From the UHGV virus genome UHGV-0119412: DNA of 30,381 nucleotides. One strand, given 5' to 3'. The position numbers and the translations under genes are program-made. This stretch comes from a virus. Shown in pieces: positions 20,332 to 30,331 of this stretch. Under the pieces are notes generated by a model. That model did not search any database and was not told where the DNA came from. It saw only the letters and a program-made list of their open reading frames with translations. Each line of letters begins with the position of its first letter. Within the stretch, counting starts at the first letter, position 1.

Positions 20332-21336
20332 ATGGGCGCGGAGATTAATATTTTGGAAACTGATTTTAAAATAACCCTCGAAGGTTTCGCTACTGAGCAA
20401 GAAGCAAATAATATCGGTAATTTCACACTAGAAGCTATCCGAGCTTTAACAAAAAATCTCAATCTTGATATCTCCAAATTAAAATGCGTGATTGTTTCCT
20501 ATAACTTCAGTGAAGCTCTTCAAAAGGTAACATCCTCTTACCAACACAAATCCCCTAGTTCGTTTACCAATAGCAAACAGGGCGCAGCCGTCGGGCAGTT
20601 AGTAACAAAAATTGGCAATGATGGGCTATGTGAAGAATATACCCTTGTGCTATCGATTGATTTTTTTGTTGAGCTTTTCAATGATGGTAGCTTCTTAAAA
20701 CTGAAAGAAGAAGGATACCTCGCAGTCATCCATCGCATTCACCATGAATTAGTGCACGTACATGAAAAAAACTTACTAACATGCTTAGCCCAAAACTTTA
20801 CAGTCAACGAGTATGGTAGCGCGCTTCTTATCTCAGCCACGCGTGCATGGTCTGAATATCTCGCTAATTACATGTCTTCGGGGTCTGCCCCTCAAGAAAC
20901 TATCGATTTATTTTTAGAGAATCTTGACACTGTTGTAAATGAAGTATCTGACGAGATTGAAAAACTCATCTGGGGTTATAAGTACGGTAATATTTCTCTG
21001 AATGACATGTATCTCGAAGTAAAAAAACGTATCAGGCTAATCATCAACTCTTATGCTTATGCGATGGGTTATGTCCATTCTCTAAACATCAATATTAAAG
21101 AATACGATCCAAAGCTATCCCTTACACTATCCAACTCAAAGATAAGATATCAATTATCAGAATTAGGCATTGCTTTTCAGAATCTTTATGGGAAGTTTAA
21201 TGACCAGCACATTACAGGTTTTGGTGATTTTCGGGAGATAACAATAATCATTGATGAAATATTCAAGCAGTTTGGGCTTGTTTTAGAGTGTCCCGATTGG
21301 TCTGGCGACGGTGAACTCTACATACATGTAAATTAG
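20332..21336 (+). CDS. Hypothetical cargo protein with HExxH...NE motif (putative zinc-metallopeptidase-like), between portal and cos
   Basis: 334-aa AT-rich ORF. HHELVH at about nt 20740-20757, with NEYGS about 17 residues later, resembles the gluzincin HExxH-x(n)-E pattern. No obvious Shine-Dalgarno before the first ATG. Confidence 0.6.
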   Translation: MGAEINILETDFKITLEGFATEQEANNIGNFTLEAIRALTKNLNLDISKLKCVIVSYNFSEALQKVTSSYQHKSPSSFTNSKQGAAVGQLVTKIGNDGLCEEYTLVLSIDFFVELFNDGSFLKLKEEGYLAVIHRIHHELVHVHEKNLLTCLAQNFTVNEYGSALLISATRAWSEYLANYMSSGSAPQETIDLFLENLDTVVNEVSDEIEKLIWGYKYGNISLNDMYLEVKKRIRLIINSYAYAMGYVHSLNINIKEYDPKLSLTLSNSKIRYQLSELGIAFQNLYGKFNDQHITGFGDFREITIIIDEIFKQFGLVLECPDWSGDGELYIHVN

Positions 21337-21555
21337 TTTAATCATAGTAGAAACATAATTAGCAGTTTGAATCCTGCCACTCCTGTAAAGCCGCTGCTCC
21401 TGGTGGCTTTTCCATGCACACCACCATCACGCATCAGATGCGTCTCACGCGCACGAACACACCCGACCACCAACGAACCAGCAGCGACCACGACAGCGCC
21501 ATCACGACGCGCTCAGAGGATAATTTTTATTATTACGCATCACTGCTGGCGCGCA

Positions 21556-21574
21556 ATGCTTTCCCCGCCACGCC
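21556..21574. other. cos site (19-nt cohesive-end sequence, 186-type)
   Basis: The plus strand reads ATGCTTTCCCCGCCACGCC, whose reverse complement GGCGTGGCGGGGAAAGCAT matches the 186 cohesive end as I recall it (P2 differs at two positions); it lies in a GC-rich non-coding stretch between Q and the replication region, as expected. Confidence 0.6.
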
Positions 21575-21772
21575 TGCCCGCTTTATGGGGCGGTTTTAAT
21601 GCAGTTGCATGACCACTCTGGATCCCCGCCAGCTCTTGCGGCGCACGTACAAAACGGGTAATCCCGGCGCATGCAGAACCATGCACCTGTTGCATGCACA
21701 GCTTATTTATTGATAAATCACCTTAAATTTACAAAAATTACGGACATTGGTTCTTTCCAAACATGATAGCCT

Positions 21773-21788
21773 CTCGATAATTATCGAG
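21773..21788. promoter_or_regulatory. Perfect 16-bp palindrome CTCGATAATTATCGAG upstream of the 313-aa cargo gene (putative operator overlapping a -10-like GATAAT)
   Basis: Seen directly; ends about 14 nt before the GGAG Shine-Dalgarno of the ORF starting at 21812. Confidence 0.4.
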
Positions 21789-21811
21789 CCTATTTTTGAA
21801 CGGAGAAAGAT

Positions 21812-22753
21812 ATGCAAGGTGAAGTTGACGAACAGCAACCCAATGAGATTATGTCGGAGTTTGGATACTATCCAGTAGAAGTTAACATTGAGACTGAACA
21901 ATTTTCTTTGCTTACTTTACCTGGTCTCAATGAGAAAGTGGAGCGTGTTAACAATGATAAAAACGTTGTGAAAGGTTGGATATACCCTGGAAACCAAGAT
22001 GTATATAACCTTAATGGTGGCATATCCACAATGCCTTATAGTCACCGTGTATTCAGTATGCCCAAAACGCACACACTAAAATTAAAAAATACATCCTCGT
22101 TAGAAACTCTCAACTTTATTGTGTGGTGCCTTTCTTTTTTCAAGGGAATAAGATTGACAACCACTGACGCTGGTTTTTTAGATGCAACCACTATCAAGCC
22201 CACTAAGTTAACCGACTTTATTCTCGTTGGATGCTCTGAAAAAGAAATCATAGAACTGGCTCTTAATTATATAAATGGCAAACATAAGGATGCGCACTCC
22301 CCCAAAAGAATTGCGGCAGTGGTGCATGCACTATTCTTATCTCAAAACCCACAATACCTTTCTTTTGAAAAATTCCAGTACCTTTACATGGCACTTGATG
22401 GGTGCTTTGCTTTGTCGTGGGCTGAGCATGACAAGGCTCCTGATAAAAAACCGCCAAATCATTACAAGCGATTAAAGTGGATGTGCAAAATTTATGGGTT
22501 ATCAATTCCCACATGGGTGTCAGGTAAAAAAAACATTTCTGGCATCCGCAATGATAATTTTCATGAGGCTATTTTTTTTGGTCAACCGCTTGGTTTCTCA
22601 AGTATTAACAACAGTCAATATGGTAACGATATATTGCTGCAAATGCAGGCACTGGTATGTCGCCTATTAGCGGCAATACTGTCGGTTAATGATTGCAGTT
22701 ATCTCAAATCTTCGGTCAACTCACGAGATTACCATTCATTAAAAATAAATTAA
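21812..22753 (+). CDS. Hypothetical cargo protein with HEPN-like RNxxxH motif (candidate abortive-infection/defence RNase)
   Basis: 313-aa AT-rich ORF with a good Shine-Dalgarno (GGAGAAAGA) and the motif GIRNDNFHEAIFFG (about nt 22546-22563); it sits where P2 carries old/tin, between cos and the replication module. Confidence 0.65.
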   Translation: MQGEVDEQQPNEIMSEFGYYPVEVNIETEQFSLLTLPGLNEKVERVNNDKNVVKGWIYPGNQDVYNLNGGISTMPYSHRVFSMPKTHTLKLKNTSSLETLNFIVWCLSFFKGIRLTTTDAGFLDATTIKPTKLTDFILVGCSEKEIIELALNYINGKHKDAHSPKRIAAVVHALFLSQNPQYLSFEKFQYLYMALDGCFALSWAEHDKAPDKKPPNHYKRLKWMCKIYGLSIPTWVSGKKNISGIRNDNFHEAIFFGQPLGFSSINNSQYGNDILLQMQALVCRLLAAILSVNDCSYLKSSVNSRDYHSLKIN

Positions 22754-22760
22754 TACTAAC

Positions 22761-22823
22761 GCCTCGCGGTGCTCGTTGTTCAATCCCCGCCAGTACTGAA
22801 AGCGAGTTTCAGAACCGGCGGCG
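22761..22823. repeat. Copy 1 of a ~63-nt imperfect direct repeat with an internal short palindrome
   Basis: GCCTCGCGGTGCTCGTTGTTCAATCCCCGCCAGTACTGAAAGCGAGTTTCAG..., similar to the copy at 23167; internal palindrome CTGAAA..TTTCAG. Confidence 0.4.
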
Positions 22824-22827
22824 TTTG

Positions 22828-23037
22828 CTATCGTCGACGTGGTGGTGGTGCGTATTGTTTCGACCTGCTGATGCTATCCAGCTTGCCGTAATTATCCCTG
22901 ACTATTTCGGCACACCCGACCAGCTCTGCGGGTGTCAAATTCTCATTGACCATTATCTGCTGCAAACGATGAACGATGGCCATCAGTTTGATGCTTTTAG
23001 TTTTGTGCTGCGGTATTTCACCTGGTAGTCGATGCAT
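22828..23037 (-). CDS. Small hypothetical protein (69 aa)
   Basis: ATG preceded by GAGGGTG at appropriate spacing; lies between the two direct-repeat copies; no recognisable motif. Confidence 0.4.
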   Translation of the reverse strand: MHRLPGEIPQHKTKSIKLMAIVHRLQQIMVNENLTPAELVGCAEIVRDNYGKLDSISRSKQYAPPPRRR

Positions 23038-23166
23038 ATTATCACCCTCAATGAATTTTAATCAGTGCCGTCAAAACGCCACTATAAAACCATCTCAGGT
23101 CATGCCTCATTAATCATGGGCGTGTCATCAATAGCACATTGAGAAATTTTGAAAGGCAGGACTTAA

Positions 23167-23227
23167 GCCTCGTGGGCTCGTTACTCAACCCCGCCGACGC
23201 AAAAAGCTAGTTTTTGCGCCAGCACGG
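23167..23227. repeat. Copy 2 of the ~63-nt imperfect direct repeat
   Basis: GCCTCGTGGGCTCGTTACTCAACCCCGCCGACGCAAAAAGCTAGTTTTTGCG...; the internal palindrome GCAAAAAGCT/AGTTTTTGC has a different stem sequence from copy 1 at the equivalent place. Confidence 0.4.
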
Positions 23228-23236
23228 TTATTATGT

Positions 23237-23467
23237 TTAACGCCAGCTATCGTCTTCCCAAATCTCTTGTAATATGCTGCCTAATGTTTCTCTGTCCGCC
23301 TCTTTATCGAATCCGATAGCCTCTACACCAGTCATTGACCCTTTCTTAACGTTAACTTTTGTTGCAGGAAAAACGCATTGTACTCGATGTGTTATTTCAT
23401 TCTGAAAAGCATCAATGATCTGTTGCCCTAATTTTTGCTCTTTATCCAACGTGATATTGATTCTCAT
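23237..23467 (-). CDS. DinI-family protein (equivalent to the Tum C-terminal/DinI-like domain)
   Basis: 76-aa ORF MRINITLDKEQ...GSILQEIWEDDSWR closely resembles E. coli DinI as recalled (MRIEVTI...ISEILQETWES...); it lies downstream of a LexA box. Confidence 0.75.
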   Translation of the reverse strand: MRINITLDKEQKLGQQIIDAFQNEITHRVQCVFPATKVNVKKGSMTGVEAIGFDKEADRETLGSILQEIWEDDSWR

Positions 23468-23470
23468 AAT

Positions 23471-23653
23471 CTAATCAGCCTTATAAAAATTATCATCTTC
23501 GGTTTCGTTATTTTCGCTGTTTGCTAGGTCTGCAATGAGAGTGAGCGCGAGCTTTAAGTCTGATGGCTTGCAGTTTGCAATCAGAGATACCTCGGCAATA
23601 AATTGCACACAAGCCCACTTTTGCTGCGTTCGGCTGAAATGTTCGCCAACCAT
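23471..23653 (-). CDS. Small protein, in-frame upstream partner of the DinI-like ORF (possible Tum N-terminal domain)
   Basis: 60-aa ORF with a GGAGG Shine-Dalgarno; separated from the DinI-like ORF by a single in-frame TAG plus one codon; acidic C-terminus. Confidence 0.5.
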   Translation of the reverse strand: MVGEHFSRTQQKWACVQFIAEVSLIANCKPSDLKLALTLIADLANSENNETEDDNFYKAD

Positions 23654-23674
23654 GAAATCCCTCCCATAGGGTTA

Positions 23675-23690
23675 CTGTATATTTATACAG
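23675..23690. promoter_or_regulatory. LexA box (SOS operator) CTGTATATTTATACAG overlapping the promoter of the Tum/DinI-like operon
   Basis: Matches the CTGT-N8-ACAG consensus; lies 22-37 nt upstream of the 60-aa ORF start in the gap after gene A; TTGCCA and TATAAA-like hexamers are present on the minus strand. Confidence 0.7.
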
Positions 23691-23766
23691 TAGCACGTAT
23701 TGGCAAAAGATGGGAAGAAAAAAAACGAATAGAGCGATTGCTGTATGTGCATGATATGGATATGAA

Positions 23767-25989
23767 TTACTCATGTATTGGTTTTGATGCTTCAGCCATC
23801 GCCGCAACACGATTAAGGATTTTCCGAGCTTTAGCCTCATGCGATGGTGCTGCGGAAAATATTTCTCCTTTGGCCGTTCCGCGTAGCCATTTACCATCAA
23901 AACAACTTTTACCACCGGCCATCAGGTGCAGGGCTTCGCCCCGGCTGATATTAATGCCGGTTGTCAGATGTATTTCGTCGATAGTTTTAGCTATAGCTGC
24001 GTTTTGCTCATCCGTTCCGTGGATGAATTTTCGCCGTGCTGCTGGCTTTTGCTTCCTGAGTCGGTTGGTCAATTCTCGTCTTTCATGCCGACTCAGTGGT
24101 TTTGTTAAATCCAGTATCGGTGGATCGCTTTCGCTTCCCGTACAGTTATTGACAGAACTCCGAGGGACGGCTTTGCCGTCCTGAAGGTCAACGGCCAAAT
24201 CAACAGCACGCTTCGGAACAATCTTCCACTGAGTGAGCCGGGTTAAAATCGGGCTTCCTGCACCTATGGAGGAATCGTAGACCCCCTTAATACATACCGT
24301 TTCCTCACCGTACTGATTAAGCTCGGTACGCGGTTCATACAGTGTGCGCACCTGTAAATCATCGCGACGGACAAACGGCCCACCCTGAGCATTAACATAA
24401 CCAGCCCAGTCACCAGCGTCGGCGGCATCATGGACGGCGGCAAACTCAACGCTCAGACCGTGCGCGGTTTCGGTATCAGCGAGGCGACGCAACTCACGGT
24501 AAACCGTCACCGGCGCACCACCAATAAACTGAAACTGACGGATGTGCCAGCGCGCAGCCCATGCTGAAACGGCGGGGGCTGTCTCTTTCAGCAGCTCACC
24601 GCTTTCATCATCGGTTTCACCATCGAGAGCATAACCGTCGATATTTTTTGAAATGTATTTAGCAACATAGCCGGTTGCGCTGCCTTTCTCCGGGTTAATG
24701 GACTCGGCGTGGAAACGTGCTTTTTTGGATTTATCGCTTTTCAGTTCGTGGCGGTCTTCTTTCCATGCGTATTTACGGACGATGGAGCGAACATATTCAA
24801 CATCTTCCGGCAGCATGAACATCAGCATGTGCCAGTGTGGAGTGCCGTCGTGATGGGGCTCGGCGACACGAATACCGAAAATACGGACATCTTCCCGATG
24901 TAGTTTGGCACGGATACGCGCCCAGATACCGGTTAGATAGTTTTGCGTGTCAGCCGGGCTGGCACCGCTCCATTTGCTGTTACGGTAACCGGCTTTAGTC
25001 GTGGCGTGATATTTTGACGGCGCGGTTAGAGTGTAAAACTCACCGACATAACCGAGCTCATTACAGATGTTTTCAAACCCACGAATGCGGGTCATGAGCT
25101 CACAGCGGCGAATCGCAGGGTTAGCAACTGAGCCATCATATTTTTCAATCAGGCTGATACGGTTGCCGTCTTCGTCTTCGAGATCCAGACCTTTGAGAAA
25201 TTCACGAGTGCGGCGCTTTTGTTCACGCCAGTCAGTCACGCAGTTTTTACTCGCGTAAGTGTTTTTTTTCTTACTGACGTTGCCGACTGCAATTTGCAGG
25301 TGTTCGCGCCACGTAGCTGCAACACGGCGCAAACGACCGCGCCACCACCCATCGTTAAACATTTTGGCGATAGCCGGTGCGATTTCATCCGCACCGACAT
25401 ATTTTTTTTCAACCCGCTCCCAATGTGGTGGGATAACGTTGAATTGGAGGGAAATAAAGCCAGCACGAATATACCAGGTGTACAGCGTTTTAAGCTCGCC
25501 GAATCCGTGGTCATTAATGTTGGCAAGTTCACCACGAATGAAATTAGCAATATCAGCGGCCAACAGGTCAACATCAGCGCGCGACATGTCCGGGAGACGG
25601 TTATATCGGGCGACCATATTAACCATGCGTGACGACAGATATTGCATTTGCTGAGTATCAAAATGACTTCCAAAAACAGCGGTTGATACCTTGCTGTTGA
25701 TACCAGCGCATTCGTATTTTTTTGCGACCAGTTCAAGACGCGGCAATGCCTTTTTGCAGAAGCTGATTAAAAATGCATTGGCTCGTTGACTACCCTGATT
25801 TTGCTCCAGCACCGCAGCAGTGCGATAAACATCTAACCGCACGCAGTCGGGCTGGAGAGAAAGCACCTTTTTTGCATGCAGCAAAGCCGCGAACATACGG
25901 TCGCGGCGATGCTGTTGCTCATAAGTAAGGTATGGGCTGGAGATTGCCGACCGTGGGACGTTCCACGGATAAGCGAATTGAACAGCCAA
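23767..25989 (-). CDS. A: Replication initiation protein A (rolling-circle nickase, gpA-type)
   Basis: 740-aa ORF with an HUH-type motif (TPHWHMLMF); it follows the small early genes as in P2/186. Confidence 0.9.
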   Translation of the reverse strand: MAVQFAYPWNVPRSAISSPYLTYEQQHRRDRMFAALLHAKKVLSLQPDCVRLDVYRTAAVLEQNQGSQRANAFLISFCKKALPRLELVAKKYECAGINSKVSTAVFGSHFDTQQMQYLSSRMVNMVARYNRLPDMSRADVDLLAADIANFIRGELANINDHGFGELKTLYTWYIRAGFISLQFNVIPPHWERVEKKYVGADEIAPAIAKMFNDGWWRGRLRRVAATWREHLQIAVGNVSKKKNTYASKNCVTDWREQKRRTREFLKGLDLEDEDGNRISLIEKYDGSVANPAIRRCELMTRIRGFENICNELGYVGEFYTLTAPSKYHATTKAGYRNSKWSGASPADTQNYLTGIWARIRAKLHREDVRIFGIRVAEPHHDGTPHWHMLMFMLPEDVEYVRSIVRKYAWKEDRHELKSDKSKKARFHAESINPEKGSATGYVAKYISKNIDGYALDGETDDESGELLKETAPAVSAWAARWHIRQFQFIGGAPVTVYRELRRLADTETAHGLSVEFAAVHDAADAGDWAGYVNAQGGPFVRRDDLQVRTLYEPRTELNQYGEETVCIKGVYDSSIGAGSPILTRLTQWKIVPKRAVDLAVDLQDGKAVPRSSVNNCTGSESDPPILDLTKPLSRHERRELTNRLRKQKPAARRKFIHGTDEQNAAIAKTIDEIHLTTGINISRGEALHLMAGGKSCFDGKWLRGTAKGEIFSAAPSHEAKARKILNRVAAMAEASKPIHE

Positions 25990-25990
25990 T

Positions 25991-26212
25991 TTATACCCCC
26001 CGATAGTGTTTGTTTTTTAGCTCTGCGATTTGCTGGCAGGTTACGCAAAAAGCCACGCCCGGAATCGCAATGCGGCGAGCTTCCGGGATTGGTGCGTCAC
26101 ATTCCTCGCAAAGAAAACGGGAAGGTGCAGCGATACGGGTGCGTGCGTTGCTGATGTGGCGTTCGCGGTCTTCCTGCTCGCGCAGTTGTGCTAAATCCAT
26201 TGCGTCGGCCAT
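25991..26212 (-). CDS. TraR/DksA-family C4 zinc-finger protein
   Basis: 73-aa ORF with CEEC...x17...CVTC; matches the small zinc-finger ORF found upstream of A in P2-like phages. Confidence 0.7.
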   Translation of the reverse strand: MADAMDLAQLREQEDRERHISNARTRIAAPSRFLCEECDAPIPEARRIAIPGVAFCVTCQQIAELKNKHYRGV

Positions 26213-26439
26213 TAGTGCAGCTCCTGTGATTCATTCTCAAAGCGGGTTGCTTCACGGCGCAGCAGTTCGGCAGCTTCGGTGCCGCTCATTCCCTCTCTGG
26301 TAATATGGATAGCCAGCGCCTCAAGGCGGATGGAAACAGCGAGCGCGCGGTCTTTACGCTCTTCTTTTTTTGCATCGGTCAGCAATACGGCCAGCGCATC
26401 GCTATCAGTGTTAAAACTATGGATTTCGGTATTACGCAT
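26212..26439 (-). CDS. Small hypothetical early protein
   Basis: 75-aa ORF in the early operon, abutting the zinc-finger gene. Confidence 0.45.
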   Translation of the reverse strand: MRNTEIHSFNTDSDALAVLLTDAKKEERKDRALAVSIRLEALAIHITREGMSGTEAAELLRREATRFENESQELH

Positions 26440-26506
26440 AATTAACTCTCCTGATTTCGGGCAATAAGATGCCCGGCGGGTTTACGCCATTAAATTTCTG
26501 TTTGGA

Positions 26507-26845
26507 TTAATTCGGCATGGTTAGCCGTTTGGGAAATAAGCTCACTACTGCACGAAAATGATTCATCGCTGTAATAAGCGCCTTTTTCTCGTCAGTAGTC
26601 AGCTCACTTAATTCGAGTTCATGACGAGCCGCCGGTATTTTTGCCAGAAAGAAAATAGCGGCCAGCGCCCGATTATTTTCTTCAAATTGTGGGTCACGTT
26701 TATCGCGCATATCATCGACAAAACGTTCAACCTCTTTCCAGCTATCGCCCCAATATCTCGCGCGCAATTCGGCAACATGATTGAGACCGGCCAGACGTTC
26801 ACCCGCTTTTAGCGGAACAGTCGCGGAAACAGCTTCGATAGCCAT
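26507..26845 (-). CDS. Hypothetical early protein
   Basis: 112-aa ORF with a G-rich Shine-Dalgarno-like sequence upstream; in the early operon between the CII-like gene and A. Confidence 0.5.
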   Translation of the reverse strand: MAIEAVSATVPLKAGERLAGLNHVAELRARYWGDSWKEVERFVDDMRDKRDPQFEENNRALAAIFFLAKIPAARHELELSELTTDEKKALITAMNHFRAVVSLFPKRLTMPN

Positions 26846-27015
26846 GATCCCCCCCGCTTTTGAGTAGAGAGGCCAGCCAGTAAATCAGCCTGCGAGTGGC
26901 TCGGGTGCCAGCGCTTGCCGTCCTTACCTGCGATCCAGCCGTGGCCGTAGTGCATGCCGGGGCTTTGCTTAACGAGCAGAGATGCGAATGACGGTTCACT
27001 TTTCAGCATACGCAC
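26809..27015 (-). CDS. Possible small basic early protein (uncertain)
   Basis: 68-aa ORF starting GTG/ATG 2-8 nt after the CII-like stop; overlaps the next ORF by 37 nt in another frame. Confidence 0.25.
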   Translation of the reverse strand: MRMLKSEPSFASLLVKQSPGMHYGHGWIAGKDGKRWHPSHSQADLLAGLSTQKRGGSWLSKLFPRLFR

Positions 27016-27016
27016 C

Positions 27017-27526
27017 TCAAATCAGACCAAACGATGCGCCAATACCGCTCATGGTATCGACCACGCTCGACATAGCTGGATTAGTCTGCAGACGTGCATG
27101 CAGCGCCAGAGCCGACAATGACAACATGCGAATGCCGGAGTTAACGCTTTCAATCATGTTGTGCTTACGGGCAATGGTCAGACGTTCATCAGATACCGCG
27201 CCGCTCGCCAGTTCGCCGAGTTCACGCATTGCGCGCATGACATAAGACTGCAATTTGTCTTTAGCCAACTCATTAACCGGCACGCATGGTAGGCAGTGAA
27301 TCTGCGCTAAAAAACCATCAATGAGGGTTGAATCTTCGGTCAGGTCAGTCAGCAGCCACAATTCAGGTGGCGTGAACTGGTGAGGCTGTTCCGGGTTGAG
27401 CTTGTTACGTAACGTTTGAACGTTCATACCTGCACGCTCGGCCAGCTTCGCCATGTTGTGACGCTGTGCGAAAATGCGGCATGCTTCGTCATAGTGGGGA
27501 TGTTTGGAAACCTGAAAATCAAACAT
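27017..27526 (-). CDS. cII: CII-type regulatory protein (186 CII-like)
   Basis: Start at the internal Met MFDFQ... (GAGGG Shine-Dalgarno) gives 169 aa, the size of 186 CII; HTH-like segment MNVQTLRNKLNPEQ; second gene of the early lytic operon. Confidence 0.65.
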   Translation of the reverse strand: MFDFQVSKHPHYDEACRIFAQRHNMAKLAERAGMNVQTLRNKLNPEQPHQFTPPELWLLTDLTEDSTLIDGFLAQIHCLPCVPVNELAKDKLQSYVMRAMRELGELASGAVSDERLTIARKHNMIESVNSGIRMLSLSALALHARLQTNPAMSSVVDTMSGIGASFGLI

Positions 27527-27558
27527 GGTTAAATTCCCTCTAACTTGCATAATCAAAT

Positions 27559-27930
27559 TCAGTTAAGAGCGGTGCGCTGGTCGATGTAGCGACAATCAAT
27601 CGCTTGTTGAGTCAGCTTATCGCGCCATGCTTTTACGTTTACGAGGGTTCGGCTTCGTTTAGCAGCTTCCTCTTTGTTGGAAAAGTCTTTGGTCGGAGCT
27701 TTGAGAAGGACTCCCTCATCGAGCCATTGCCAGACCAGACGCTCGCTAACACCGCGAGTAGCGGCGAAGTCTTTCACAGTCATCGTGTCTGACATAGCGG
27801 AGCGAATCATTGTCTGTAGAGCTGGCAGCATGGCGGTAACGATGGCATCAAACTGTGTTGGATCTAGCAGCACAGTTTGATTTTGTGAGTTTTGCGAGTC
27901 GTGCGTCGAGATTGATTTTGCATCTGACAT
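27559..27930 (-). CDS. Apl/Cox-like HTH protein, first gene of the early lytic operon
   Basis: 123-aa ORF with an AGGAGA Shine-Dalgarno; HTH-like MTVKDFAATRGVSERLVWQWLDEG; divergent from the repressor gene. Longer than 186 Apl (87 aa) or P2 Cox (91 aa). Confidence 0.55.
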   Translation of the reverse strand: MSDAKSISTHDSQNSQNQTVLLDPTQFDAIVTAMLPALQTMIRSAMSDTMTVKDFAATRGVSERLVWQWLDEGVLLKAPTKDFSNKEEAAKRSRTLVNVKAWRDKLTQQAIDCRYIDQRTALN

Positions 27931-28051
27931 ATCGCATTATCTCCTGTTGTTTGAAATGTAGTGCAGTGGTGTGCATCTTGGTCGATGAATGCCACTATAG
28001 ATCGTAAAAAGTTTTCTGTAAACACCCATAAAATTATCTGTAGGGGTTTTT
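27931..28051. promoter_or_regulatory. Immunity switch region (lytic and lysogenic promoters and operators, not resolved)
   Basis: 121-nt gap between the divergent repressor and Apl-like genes; AT-rich, with TTGAAA and repeated TCTGTA elements; individual promoters could not be assigned by hand. Confidence 0.45.
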
Positions 28052-28912
28052 ATGAGTTCTGAGCTTGATGTTCAGTGGCGTGTTAGTGCAACGAACGGCG
28101 TATTGGAACGCTTAATGTCAGCCTATGGGGTCAAGATGCAAAAGGATTTGGCTGACCTGCTAGGTATCGCTAAACACAGCGTTAGCGGCTGGGTTCAGCG
28201 TGATGCAATACCTGGCAATGTCATAGTTAGGTGTTGTCTTGACACGGGAGCTGATATCAATTGGCTTGTAAATGGAGAGCTTGCAAATGCAAATCACGAG
28301 CGAGCCAGTTGCAAGTTAAAAGGCAAAGAGCTTTATGACGAGATTATGACGAATGGTGGTAAAACCGTTTTGCGTAGGATTCTTGATGCGTATGGCTTTA
28401 CCATGCAAAAGGAGCTCGGTGATTTGCTCGGCATTTCCTCTGGCACAATTAGCACATGGGTAAGGCGAGATTTTTTCCCTGGTGATGTTGTTGTTACATG
28501 CGCTCTTGATACCGATACGTCACTGGAATGGTTAGCAACAGGCAAGGGGCAAATGCGAGCTAACAGGGAAGATGTCACATCTGGTTTTTCAATTAAAAAA
28601 TCTCGTCTTGAATCTGGTGAGCTTAAGGATGCAGGAACGTGGCATCCTGACCCCTCAATGATTCCTTCTAACTCAGGGGAATTGATTTTTGTTGACGGTG
28701 TAGCTGCCTCTTGGCTTGTCGACTGTTCTGCTTCGAATATAAGTAATGGTCGCTGGTTAATTGATATCGACGGCGCTCTTGATGTTTTTGATGTAATTCG
28801 TTTACCTGGTGGAAAAGTCAGGTTGTCAAATAAGTCTGCTGAGTTTGAATGCAACATTACCGACATTACGCCTGCCGGGGTTGTAGTTTTCACATTGGAA
28901 AAACACGTATAA
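28052..28912 (+). CDS. cI: CI-type immunity repressor with a tandemly duplicated N-terminal HTH domain
   Basis: 286-aa ORF. Two homologous segments (...LERLMSAYGVKMQKDLADLLGIAKHSVSGWVQRDAIPGNVIVRCCLDTGADINWLVNGE and ...LRRILDAYGFTMQKELGDLLGISSGTISTWVRRDFFPGDVVVTCALDTDTSLEWLATGK) are followed by a C-terminal domain; upstream of int and divergent from the lytic operon. Confidence 0.75.
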   Translation: MSSELDVQWRVSATNGVLERLMSAYGVKMQKDLADLLGIAKHSVSGWVQRDAIPGNVIVRCCLDTGADINWLVNGELANANHERASCKLKGKELYDEIMTNGGKTVLRRILDAYGFTMQKELGDLLGISSGTISTWVRRDFFPGDVVVTCALDTDTSLEWLATGKGQMRANREDVTSGFSIKKSRLESGELKDAGTWHPDPSMIPSNSGELIFVDGVAASWLVDCSASNISNGRWLIDIDGALDVFDVIRLPGGKVRLSNKSAEFECNITDITPAGVVVFTLEKHV

Positions 28913-28920
28913 GGGAAATT

Positions 28921-29259
28921 ATGAAACGTAAACTCTTTTTAGCTATGCTTCTTACCTTTTCTTTTGGCTCCTTAGCCGCTGAAAAAACACAGGATTTAGA
29001 TGGCGCTAAGTTTGGTGAGGATTGGCCGTTAACTTTTGAAAAAGCTACGGTGTCTTGCGTTAACGGTAAGTATGCCTTTGTATACGACAAAGCAACTGAT
29101 GACCGATACCCATTAAATGGTTTTGCTATTGATGGAGTAAAGTCTGGAAAGCTTGAGGGGAGCAATATTGATGCTGTTTGGAAAGACAGTCCAGAGTATG
29201 CAGGTGTAAAAATTCCTTTGGATCCTGTAATGGATGCCGCAACAGCACTTTGCGAATAA
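28921..29259 (+). CDS. Secreted small protein, YebY/DUF2511-like (moron between cI and int)
   Basis: Start at the internal Met gives 112 aa with a signal peptide (MKRKLFLAMLLTFSFGSLAA), a YPLNG motif and a C-terminal Cys, resembling E. coli YebY as recalled. Confidence 0.5.
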   Translation: MKRKLFLAMLLTFSFGSLAAEKTQDLDGAKFGEDWPLTFEKATVSCVNGKYAFVYDKATDDRYPLNGFAIDGVKSGKLEGSNIDAVWKDSPEYAGVKIPLDPVMDAATALCE

Positions 29260-29281
29260 TTAGAGTTGCCTCGGTGACATT

Positions 29282-30331
29282 ATGACTGTAAGTAAGCAAA
29301 AAAATGGCAAATGGTTATGCGAGCTCTATCCAAATGGTCGAGAAGGGCGGCGTATACGTCGGCAATTCAATACCAAAGGTGAGGCCGAGGCATTCGAAGC
29401 ATTTACCAAAAGCGAGAGTGAAGATAAGCCGTGGCTTGGCAAGAAAGAAGACCGCCGACGCTTAAGCGAGATTATTCAGCTTTGGCACAATTTGCACGGT
29501 CAAGCGTTAGTCGCCAGTAAGTCGAGGTTAGCAAAGCTTCAAATCGTATGTAATGGGCTTGGTGACCCGATTGCATCTCGCCTTACCGCGAAAGACTGGG
29601 CTCATTATCGTGACCGTCGATTACGTGGTGAAATAGACAACGGTTATCATAAAGACCCCTCGAAATGGATCGCCAAACCTATAACCGTCAATCGCGAACA
29701 ACAATACCTAGAAGCAGTGTTTAATGAGCTCCGCCGGTTAGGGGAGTGGAGCTTACCCAATCCACTTGATGGGATCCGAGTATTCAAAGAGGCTGAGAAA
29801 GAAATGTCCTGGCTAACTTTGTCTCAGCTCCCGGAGCTGTTTCGAGCCTGCGAGCAATACGGCAAAGAAGACCTCACCATGATTGTTAAGGTGTGCCTTG
29901 CAACCGGCGCTCGATGGGGGGAAGCGGAGAGATTGACCCGCCCTCAACTTTCTCCATATAAACTGACGTTCACCAAAACCAAAGGTAAGAAGAATCGCAC
30001 AGTTCCTATTCCTAAATGGCTGTACGACGAGTTGTCCGTACGTCAAGGCAGAATGTTTAAACCCTGCTATCAGGAGTTTAAGAAGATGCTCAAACTAACG
30101 AATATTGAATTGACGGAAGGGCAGAAGACGCACGTTTTGCGTCATACTTTTGGTGCGCATTTTATGATGAACGGCGGGAATATACTGGTACTGCAGAAAA
30201 TTCTCGGGCATGCCAATATTCGAGAAACAATGAAGTATGCACACTTTGCTCCTGACCACCTTGAACAAGCTGTAACCCTTAATCCGTTATCGCTGTATGT
30301 TGGCGACAATATGGCGGCAGAGGTTGCATAA
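29282..30331 (+). CDS. int: Tyrosine integrase
   Basis: 349-aa ORF with catalytic-domain motifs (HVLRHTFG, HANIRETMKYAHF with the Tyr nucleophile); at the prophage edge downstream of cI. Confidence 0.9.
   Translation: MTVSKQKNGKWLCELYPNGREGRRIRRQFNTKGEAEAFEAFTKSESEDKPWLGKKEDRRRLSEIIQLWHNLHGQALVASKSRLAKLQIVCNGLGDPIASRLTAKDWAHYRDRRLRGEIDNGYHKDPSKWIAKPITVNREQQYLEAVFNELRRLGEWSLPNPLDGIRVFKEAEKEMSWLTLSQLPELFRACEQYGKEDLTMIVKVCLATGARWGEAERLTRPQLSPYKLTFTKTKGKKNRTVPIPKWLYDELSVRQGRMFKPCYQEFKKMLKLTNIELTEGQKTHVLRHTFGAHFMMNGGNILVLQKILGHANIRETMKYAHFAPDHLEQAVTLNPLSLYVGDNMAAEVA

Follow-up and report, generated by a model that had tools for sequence, protein, structure and literature searches.

A DUF2511/YebY-family gene with a predicted signal peptide in a variable cargo slot between cI and int of a PSP3/186-type prophage

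Two members of the DUF2511 family have been characterised. YebY of Escherichia coli, encoded by the third gene of the yobA-yebZ-yebY copper-uptake operon, is experimentally periplasmic, and both of its cysteine residues are needed (PMC8689200). MlbQ of Microbispora is proposed to provide self-resistance to the lantibiotic NAI-107 by binding; it is a lipoprotein with a long linker, encoded together with ABC transporters in the cluster of an actinomycete producer (PMC8689200). The first conserved residue of the family is a tryptophan (YebY Trp37, MlbQ Trp71), and the paper on the structure of YebY already noted that some family members are encoded with a CI repressor on one side and a recombinase on the other (PMC8689200). 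Among sequenced phages, PSP3 carries such a gene as orf28 (gp28, NP_958085), and SEN1, Midge, RCIP0057, SI22, SW9 and vB_EcoM-613R3 carry the same gene at the same position between cI and int, all within PHROG 2950. The PSP3 record bears the note 'similar to Escherichia coli hypothetical protein...', the RefSeq label is 'DUF2511 domain-containing protein', and the Midge record reads 'putative periplasmic protein'. Because these annotations and the mention in the YebY structure paper put the feature and its context on record, the gene and its cI/recombinase surroundings are already known from annotation and literature; our literature search found no paper testing the function of a phage-borne copy.

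Superinfection-exclusion proteins that act at the envelope or in the periplasm include Spackle of T4, Sim of P1, Llp of T5, Cor of phi80 and N15, and gp15 of HK97. The protein considered here, predicted to be exported, is like them a small single-gene product of a resident phage; the likeness is a functional analogy only, and neither the PDB fold search nor PADLOC detected kinship of sequence or fold to any of the five. A second point of comparison is offered by the morons and hotspots of P2-like phages (old/tin/fun), in which variable cargo lies between conserved genes, with a dip in GC content and presence or absence among relatives (PMC9122126, PMC13586616). The known P2 defence hotspots lie elsewhere, and the part of the hotspot study drawn on here does not single out the cI-int junction (PMC13586616).

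The window, that is, the whole stretch of 30,381 nucleotides analysed here (UHGV virus genome UHGV-0119412), is a PSP3/186-type prophage (Peduoviridae, Eganvirus). Over the 3.4 kb round the gene, identity is 99.7% to Escherichia phage vB_EcoM-613R3 and 86-90% to the Salmonella phages PSP3 and SEN1 (Eganvirus, Peduoviridae), and the gene product is 100% identical to its equivalent in vB_EcoM-613R3, 97% to those of PSP3 and SEN1, and 72-88% to those of Midge, RCIP0057, SI22 and SW9. The gene and the two genes that flank it are:

28921..29259, plus strand: DUF2511/YebY-family gene of 112 codons and a stop, recognised by its ORF and by Pfam, PHROG and YebY matches; the equivalent of PSP3 orf28/gp28
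28052..28912, plus strand: cI immunity repressor of 286 aa, with two Phage_CI_repr HTH domains and a Phage_CI_C domain, 98% identical to PSP3 cI
29282..30331, plus strand: tyrosine integrase of 349 aa, with Int_N and Phage_integrase domains (PHROG 1)

The gene runs from an ATG at 28921 to a TAA at 29257-29259 and encodes 112 aa (MKRKLFLAMLLTFSFGSLAAEKTQ...ALCE). The initial annotation had assigned this product to the YebY/DUF2511 family and had proposed a homology search as the check; that search bore the assignment out, with a match to Pfam DUF2511 (PF10709) of 63.7 bits (E=2.1e-17, profile positions 5-87 of 87, against a gathering cut-off of 21 bits), a match to PHROG 2950 over residues 1-112 of 112 (E=1.8e-52; the PHROG label is 'unknown function') and a match to E. 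coli YebY (PDB 7N0J) over residues 32-111 (E=3.7e-7), to which the predicted fold described below adds. Scans of the protein against NCBIfam and PADLOC returned no match. The initial annotation was correct throughout on coordinates, length, family and neighbours, and its placement of the gene between cI and int agrees with the domain matches on either side and with gaps of 8 nt from cI and 22 nt to int. Conservation in more than 50 loci and a median dN/dS of 0.09 over the mature part mark the gene as real and not an ORF arisen by chance. A longer ORF of 136 aa, from 28849, was rejected: it starts within cI, and all homologues and RefSeq annotations start at the MK... codon behind a Shine-Dalgarno-like GGGA. 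An antisense ORF of 91 aa (28890..29165) was treated as spurious.

The position of the gene bears on when it would be expressed. The relevant signals and the oppositely oriented early genes are:

28913..28916, plus strand: Shine-Dalgarno-like GGGA, right after the cI stop and 4 nt ahead of the ATG
27912..27940, plus strand: putative pL-type lysogenic promoter TTGATT-17-CATTAT, assigned by the geometry of 186 pL and by conservation
27994..28022, minus strand: candidate pR-type early lytic promoter TTTACA-17-TATAGT, found by the consensus scan with 10 of 12 matches
27559..27930, minus strand: ORF of 123 aa at the Apl/Cox position, first gene of the lytic operon, the equivalent of PSP3 gp30
27017..27556, minus strand: CII-type establishment activator (Phage_CP76, E=3.8e-46), 98% identical to 186 CII

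The repressor, whose N-terminal HTH domain is duplicated, ends in a TAA at 28910-28912, so close to the next start codon that the gene is possibly translationally coupled to cI; in phage Midge a ribosome-binding site is annotated at the place equivalent to the GGGA. The pL-type site has 8 of 12 consensus matches, which is under the scan threshold of 9 of 12; its 17-nt spacer and its placement relative to the apl start codon are identical to those of the annotated 186 pL (TTGCGA-17-CATGAT, whose -10 hexamer begins 5 nt past the apl ATG). Its conservation extends to PSP3, Midge and Salmonella prophages, and more distant prophages still have a recognisable form of it. The candidate pR faces this pL-type site, face-to-face as in 186. 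The protein at the Apl/Cox position has no Pfam match, and its counterpart in phage Midge is annotated as Cox; further early genes of 186 type lie on the same opposite strand. In the 186 record, pL and a CII-activated pE drive cI-int-orf69, pE also reading into the lysogenic operon, with a terminator beyond attP. The consensus scan found no promoter- or terminator-like site on the plus strand from the start of cI to the start of int, and no RNA family was recovered when the whole window was scanned against Rfam. The initial annotation had placed the gene in the lysogenic operon, to be expressed from the prophage during lysogeny; tight spacing, the empty scan between the genes and the pL-like geometry favour this by inference from the sequence. 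Co-transcription with cI in the lysogen is accordingly a well-founded inference, and expression of the gene in lysogeny is probable.

The product divides into two parts:

28921..28977, plus strand: predicted Sec (SPase I) signal peptide, residues 1-19, from hydropathy, charge and the -3/-1 rule
28978..29256, plus strand: mature domain, from composition, alignment to YebY and an AF2 model

The signal peptide was judged on sequence features, namely hydropathy, charge and the cleavage-site rule. An n-region MKRK with a net charge of +3 precedes an h-region of 14 hydrophobic residues (L5-L18), and the predicted cleavage site S-L-A|A-E-K (A19|A20) conforms to the -3/-1 rule. In all of the aligned type-A variants (those of the lineage defined below), position -3 is A, S, V or G and position -1 is A, before an invariant A20-E21, while the rest of the leader varies freely. 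Between the window and locus L003, dN is 0.185 in the signal region and 0.050 in the mature part; a several-fold excess of this kind in the leader is typical of signal peptides. Canonical n, h and c regions with an A-x-A-type site thus speak for the signal peptide that the initial annotation had claimed. A lipoprotein reading was rejected, as the signal region of the window protein has no lipobox cysteine, and the variants that do have a cysteine in the leader have Leu at -1, which is unfit for a lipobox.

The mature protein is acidic (~10.1 kDa, pI ~4.4) and contains no histidine, one methionine and two cysteines. Cys46 (codon 29056-29058) aligns with the cysteine of the YebY MLTC motif and Cys111 (codon 29251-29253) with the C-terminal cysteine of YebY, so that the two are the counterparts of the YebY Cys48-Cys113 disulfide, a pairing that is predicted here. 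Both are invariant or nearly so across the phage clade, Trp35 is invariant and aligns with YebY Trp37, the conserved tryptophan of the family, and the alignment of the phage-borne protein holds 40 invariant residues in all. An AF2 model built on a shallow alignment of 16 sequences is of moderate quality (mean pLDDT 70) and appears to have the family fold, a four-stranded antiparallel sheet packed with helices. In the PDB fold search it matched YebY 7N0J (TM 0.60-0.73, probability 1.00) and MlbQ (2MVO/6QFP; TM 0.52-0.61) and nothing significant beyond these; a search of the viral folds in BFVD gave no significant match, a weak negative given that the model is only moderate.

The phage protein thus shares with E. 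coli YebY its family, size, predicted signal peptide, tryptophan, Cys-Cys pair and predicted fold. It differs in being only ~30-33% identical, in belonging to a separate clade whose nearest relatives are phage-borne, and in lying in a predicted prophage lysogeny operon rather than beside copC/copD homologues. An orthologue of YebY would be recognised by copD (yebZ) and copC (yobA) next door; here cI and int flank the gene in 53 of 53 loci. Recent capture from host yebY was rejected on the same grounds, the identity being ~33% and the nearest relatives phage-borne. With MlbQ the protein has family and predicted fold in common; unlike MlbQ, it has neither a lipobox nor a linked transporter.

Comparison of related elements indicates that the gene is one occupant of a site that can hold others. 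All 53 loci of the type-A lineage (PSP3, Midge, six Salmonella genomes and 45 IMG/VR contigs) have the order cI, DUF2511, int, whereas in phage 186 cI abuts int with nothing between. A census of 80 related loci, collected via cI and not via DUF2511, found DUF2511 in 59, other cargo in 14 and nothing in four, the remaining three being cut by contig ends; DUF2511 is therefore absent or replaced in 18 of the 77 informative loci. The four empty loci (L098-L101) have 30-80 nt from cI to int. Thirteen of the 14 loci with other cargo have inserts of 400-700 nt, which, where an ORF was called, encode envelope-type proteins, either a different signal-peptide protein (130-137 aa) or a protein of 187-201 aa with hydrophobic, membrane-type segments at its N-terminus and a WYL domain; the fourteenth encodes a 279-aa protein. 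Some loci hold two cargo genes, DUF2511 being accompanied by the other secreted protein or by a bPH_3+SHOCT protein. Measured against the window protein, the DUF2511 occupants themselves form lineages at 58-100%, 46-49% and 31-37% identity. That the cI-int junction serves as a variable cargo slot is newly described here, and the gene is accessory: on the question of its presence or absence in related prophages, which the initial annotation had raised, 186 and some PSP3-type elements are without it and others carry different cargo. We hold the identity, location and accessory status of the gene with high confidence.

As in the morons of P2-like phages, then, the gene is present or absent at a fixed junction and deviates in base composition, with a GC content of ~0.40 over the gene, compared with 0.44-0.47 over cI and 0.48-0.59 over most of 25000..27800. 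It does not qualify as a classical moron, since the short flanking gaps show neither a promoter nor a terminator for it alone and the gene would instead ride inside the cI-int operon.

Exchange within the slot extends to alleles of DUF2511. Over 63 distinct identity profiles, DUF2511 identity tracks that of cI best (Spearman 0.67, compared with 0.34-0.37 for int, apl and cII), and there are also clear swaps of cassettes, as where cI is 87% identical with DUF2511 at 48%, or int 99% identical with DUF2511 at 65%. DUF2511 alleles of 46-100% identity are exchanged among phages that match one another at 94-100% in apl, int and cII, and E. coli alone carries several alleles. The mature part is under purifying selection, with a median dN/dS of 0.09 within the type-A lineage, synonymous sites being saturated between sub-lineages; the same analysis gave no sign of positive selection.

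When 1.84 billion representatives were searched with a profile, 787 family members came up at E<=0.001. Nine of the nearest representatives were examined for context, and seven of these neighbour a repressor or are embedded in P2/186-type phage DNA: between a single-HTH CI and int (P0020), between a double-HTH cI and int (P0022), downstream of an XRE-type HTH gene in a P2-like element (P0023), downstream of a cI homologue (P0024), adjoining gpD (P0025), downstream of a WYL protein (P0027) and at a prophage edge beside ogr-gpD (P0034). Of the other two, one is chromosomal (P0029) and one adjoins a KAP NTPase gene in an ambiguous context (P0026). The broad association of DUF2511 with P2/186-type phages is likewise newly added here.

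What the protein does is a matter of more tentative interpretation. We propose that it is an exported, disulfide-stabilised cargo of the YebY family, expressed in lysogeny and protecting the lysogen at the envelope; taken as a whole this statement is possible rather than probable. The gene would be co-transcribed with cI and int from the pL-type promoter in the lysogen, a CII-activated pE would transcribe it during establishment, and its product would be made whenever the prophage is repressed. The protein would be exported by Sec and cleaved at A19|A20, DsbA would form the C46-C111 bond in the periplasm, and the resulting acidic, His-free protein of ~10 kDa may act as a small periplasmic binding protein. 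It could block superinfection by binding some part of the incoming phage, or of the route by which phages enter the host, that is exposed to the periplasm; superinfection exclusion had also been suggested by the initial annotation. Such exclusion is our leading guess, and a doubtful one. Protection of the lysogen is put first because other occupants of the slot are secreted or membrane proteins, because alleles swap and because several alleles coexist in one host species, features that resemble those of prophage genes engaged in envelope conflicts. Certain observations count against the proposal. Strong purifying selection with no sign of positive selection is atypical of an arms-race factor; one widespread E. 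coli lineage carries a C111W substitution, some of its members having a frameshift as well; PADLOC has no match; and YebY is tied to copper import and MlbQ to lantibiotic binding, neither of them to phages.

The main rival to protection of the lysogen is copper conversion, in which an extra periplasmic copy of a YebY-like protein would damp the entry of copper by way of the CopD-type transporter YebZ and the partner protein YobA, and the altered copper load would change mar activation or NDH-2 function. The protein is of the same family as YebY, with the motifs YPLN, SGK and D-P and the Cys pair in common; co-expression of YebY and YebZ lowers copper accumulation (PMC11923076); and the known hosts are Escherichia, Salmonella, Klebsiella and Enterobacter. 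We nevertheless consider a copper role unlikely, given that the protein is only ~33% identical to YebY and forms a separate clade, that about half of the family is unlinked to copC/copD (PMC8689200), and that the mature protein, lacking histidine and with a single methionine, is poor in metal ligands, while YebY itself binds copper weakly and only when reduced (PMC8689200). Deep allele diversity and cassette swapping within one host would also be unexpected in a mimic of a conserved partner, and the other occupants of the slot are unrelated to metals. The second characterised relative suggests a different role, immunity of the MlbQ kind, in which the protein would neutralise an envelope-acting peptide toxin (a bacteriocin, a microcin or a lipid-II-targeting peptide) and so guard the host against competitors rather than phages. 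MlbQ, the only other characterised family member and proposed to act by binding NAI-107 (PMC8689200), is one of only two structural relatives found, and a small, acidic, soluble protein, predicted to be a periplasmic binder, would suit such a task; yet MlbQ is a lipoprotein of an actinomycete producer encoded with ABC transporters (PMC8689200), this locus has no linked toxin gene, and compounds of the lantibiotic type are without evidence of relevance in the periplasm of Enterobacteriaceae, so that we give this role a low probability.

The patchy distribution of the gene raises the further alternative that it is a passenger, an old hitch-hiker of the immunity module that is transcribed by virtue of its position, dispensable, and decaying in some lineages. 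Besides being missing or replaced at 18 of 77 informative loci, the type-A gene is rare, occurring in 44 of 5426 complete E. coli genomes and in 2 of 185,579 species representatives, and some E. coli alleles are damaged. Nineteen of the 44 E. coli copies fall in a band of 90-95% DNA identity; both copies sampled from this band (n=2) carry C111W and so lose the essential disulfide cysteine, and in one of the two a 10-bp deletion also removes the RYPLN motif, the gene being annotated as frameshifted. These C111W and frameshifted alleles imply that the gene is dispensable and that selection on it can lapse. Against a mere passenger stand the dN/dS of ~0.09 over lineages whose synonymous sites are saturated, the 40 invariant residues, and the retention of the gene in the same slot in lineages just 31-49% identical to the window protein, and we regard this explanation as quite improbable. 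Least of all do we favour a role in the phage cycle itself, for example in aiding release or entry from the periplasmic side with no benefit to the lysogen: the association with P2/186-type phages is broad and old, as such a role would have it, but the gene and the lytic operon are on opposite strands, the gene being on the lysogenic one, 186 and other viable relatives are without it, and the lysis and structural modules are located elsewhere, which makes this role very improbable.

As it stands the finding is an ordinary one, the gene being that of PSP3 gp28, annotated in RefSeq, with its context in the YebY structure paper; it concerns a conserved protein with predicted export that the prophage probably makes alongside its repressor. 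Its wider interest would depend on which function is demonstrated. If exclusion or protection were demonstrated, DUF2511 would be a new fold among the few periplasmic exclusion factors, and the 186-type cI-int junction would stand out as a place from which cargo genes acting at the envelope can be drawn. If an effect on copper were demonstrated instead, a prophage would, unusually, be adjusting the metal uptake of its host. With either outcome the DUF2511 family would gain another functional anchor, its second. A more speculative extension, which we consider improbable, is that, in the secreted DUF2511 proteins, the repressor/att region of P2/186-type phages carries a class of periplasmic factors for lysogen protection (acting by exclusion or by toxin binding) that is old, widespread and hitherto unrecognised, and that the cI-int junction is reserved for single-gene cargo that acts at the envelope. 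If this were true, the biology of chromosomal relatives, including YebY, might need re-reading.

Within complete E. coli genomes the type-A gene is always single-copy and chromosomal. A plasmid search yielded no genuine plasmid copy, its returns being a chromosomal prophage copy and yebY on megaplasmids or mislabelled chromosomes. The two species representatives with the gene are too few to define its host range. The gene is present in seven sequenced phages (10 records), and its C111W allele is the representative of a protein cluster with 101 members.

The DUF2511 gene of the window lies immediately downstream of a repressor gene, on the opposite strand to the gene in the Apl/Cox position:

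Window 28052..28912, plus strand: cI repressor, 286 aa
Window 27559..27930, minus strand: Apl/Cox-position gene, 123 aa

The repressor has two tandem Phage_CI_repr HTH domains followed by a CI_C domain, whereas the CI protein of phage 186 has 192 aa and one HTH domain; DUF2511 genes are preceded by either form, single-HTH (194 aa in the related locus L136) or double-HTH. The GC content of the cI-DUF2511 module (window 27850..29350) is 0.40-0.47, below that of most of 25000..27800 on its left (mostly 0.46-0.59), and its GC skew of 0.14-0.26 is the strongest positive skew in the scanned stretch, the left side reaching at most 0.12. Low GC and strong skew together fit a module swapped as one unit. 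The product of the Apl/Cox-position gene, the PSP3 equivalent of which was termed a singleton in an earlier survey (PMC3448106), matches no Pfam family, and its sole match in PADLOC, to the mad1 model of MADS, is weak and of the HTH type (E=8.5e-4).

Other kinds of protein are encoded in the cI-int slot or next to DUF2511 genes in related loci (positions local to each locus):

L036:3570-3974; L076:3373-3765; L096:3338-3742; L102:3382-3795: signal-peptide protein, 130-137 aa (MKRSIFA...AQPSN...)
L089:3322-3885; L113:3361-3924; L125:3389-3988; L143:195-791: WYL-domain protein
L049:4355-4861; L114:3619-4119; L123:3756-4262: bPH_3 (bacterial PH)+SHOCT protein, 166-168 aa

The signal-peptide protein is unrelated to DUF2511 and occupies the slot by itself or alongside it; no Pfam match was found for the L036, L096 and L102 copies, nor a PADLOC match for the L036 copy. 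The WYL proteins (187-201 aa), with hydrophobic membrane-type segments N-terminal to the WYL domain, stand in place of DUF2511, except that the 198-aa L143 protein lacks the hydrophobic N-terminus and is encoded upstream of a DUF2511 gene. The bPH_3+SHOCT gene lies downstream of DUF2511 and, in L049, where an integrase was found, upstream of int; the L049 copy had no PADLOC match.

Two more distant DUF2511 genes (120-161 aa) adjoin ogr and gpD, across the att region at the edge of P2-like prophages:

L145:4001-4486: DUF2511 gene
L139:193-555: DUF2511 gene

Phage-borne DUF2511 is therefore not limited to the cI-int junction. Elsewhere in the window, the interval from portal gene Q to replication gene A (20332..23915) is a known P2 defence hotspot; its ORFs of 334 aa (20332..21336) and 313 aa (21812..22753), together with shorter ones of 111 aa and 135 aa, matched neither Pfam nor PADLOC and may be uncharacterised cargo.

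In one E. coli prophage lineage, the DUF2511 protein has lost a disulfide cysteine through C111W, a substitution also present in L026, L027 and the family representative P0001:

L150:1501-1839: C111W allele, strain S3
L151:1501-1829: C111W allele, strain Ecol_545

The disulfide cysteine is required for stable expression of YebY (PMC8689200). Some members of the lineage carry an additional 10-bp deletion that removes the RYPLN motif, and are annotated as frameshifted; decay of the DUF2511 gene appears to be under way in this lineage.
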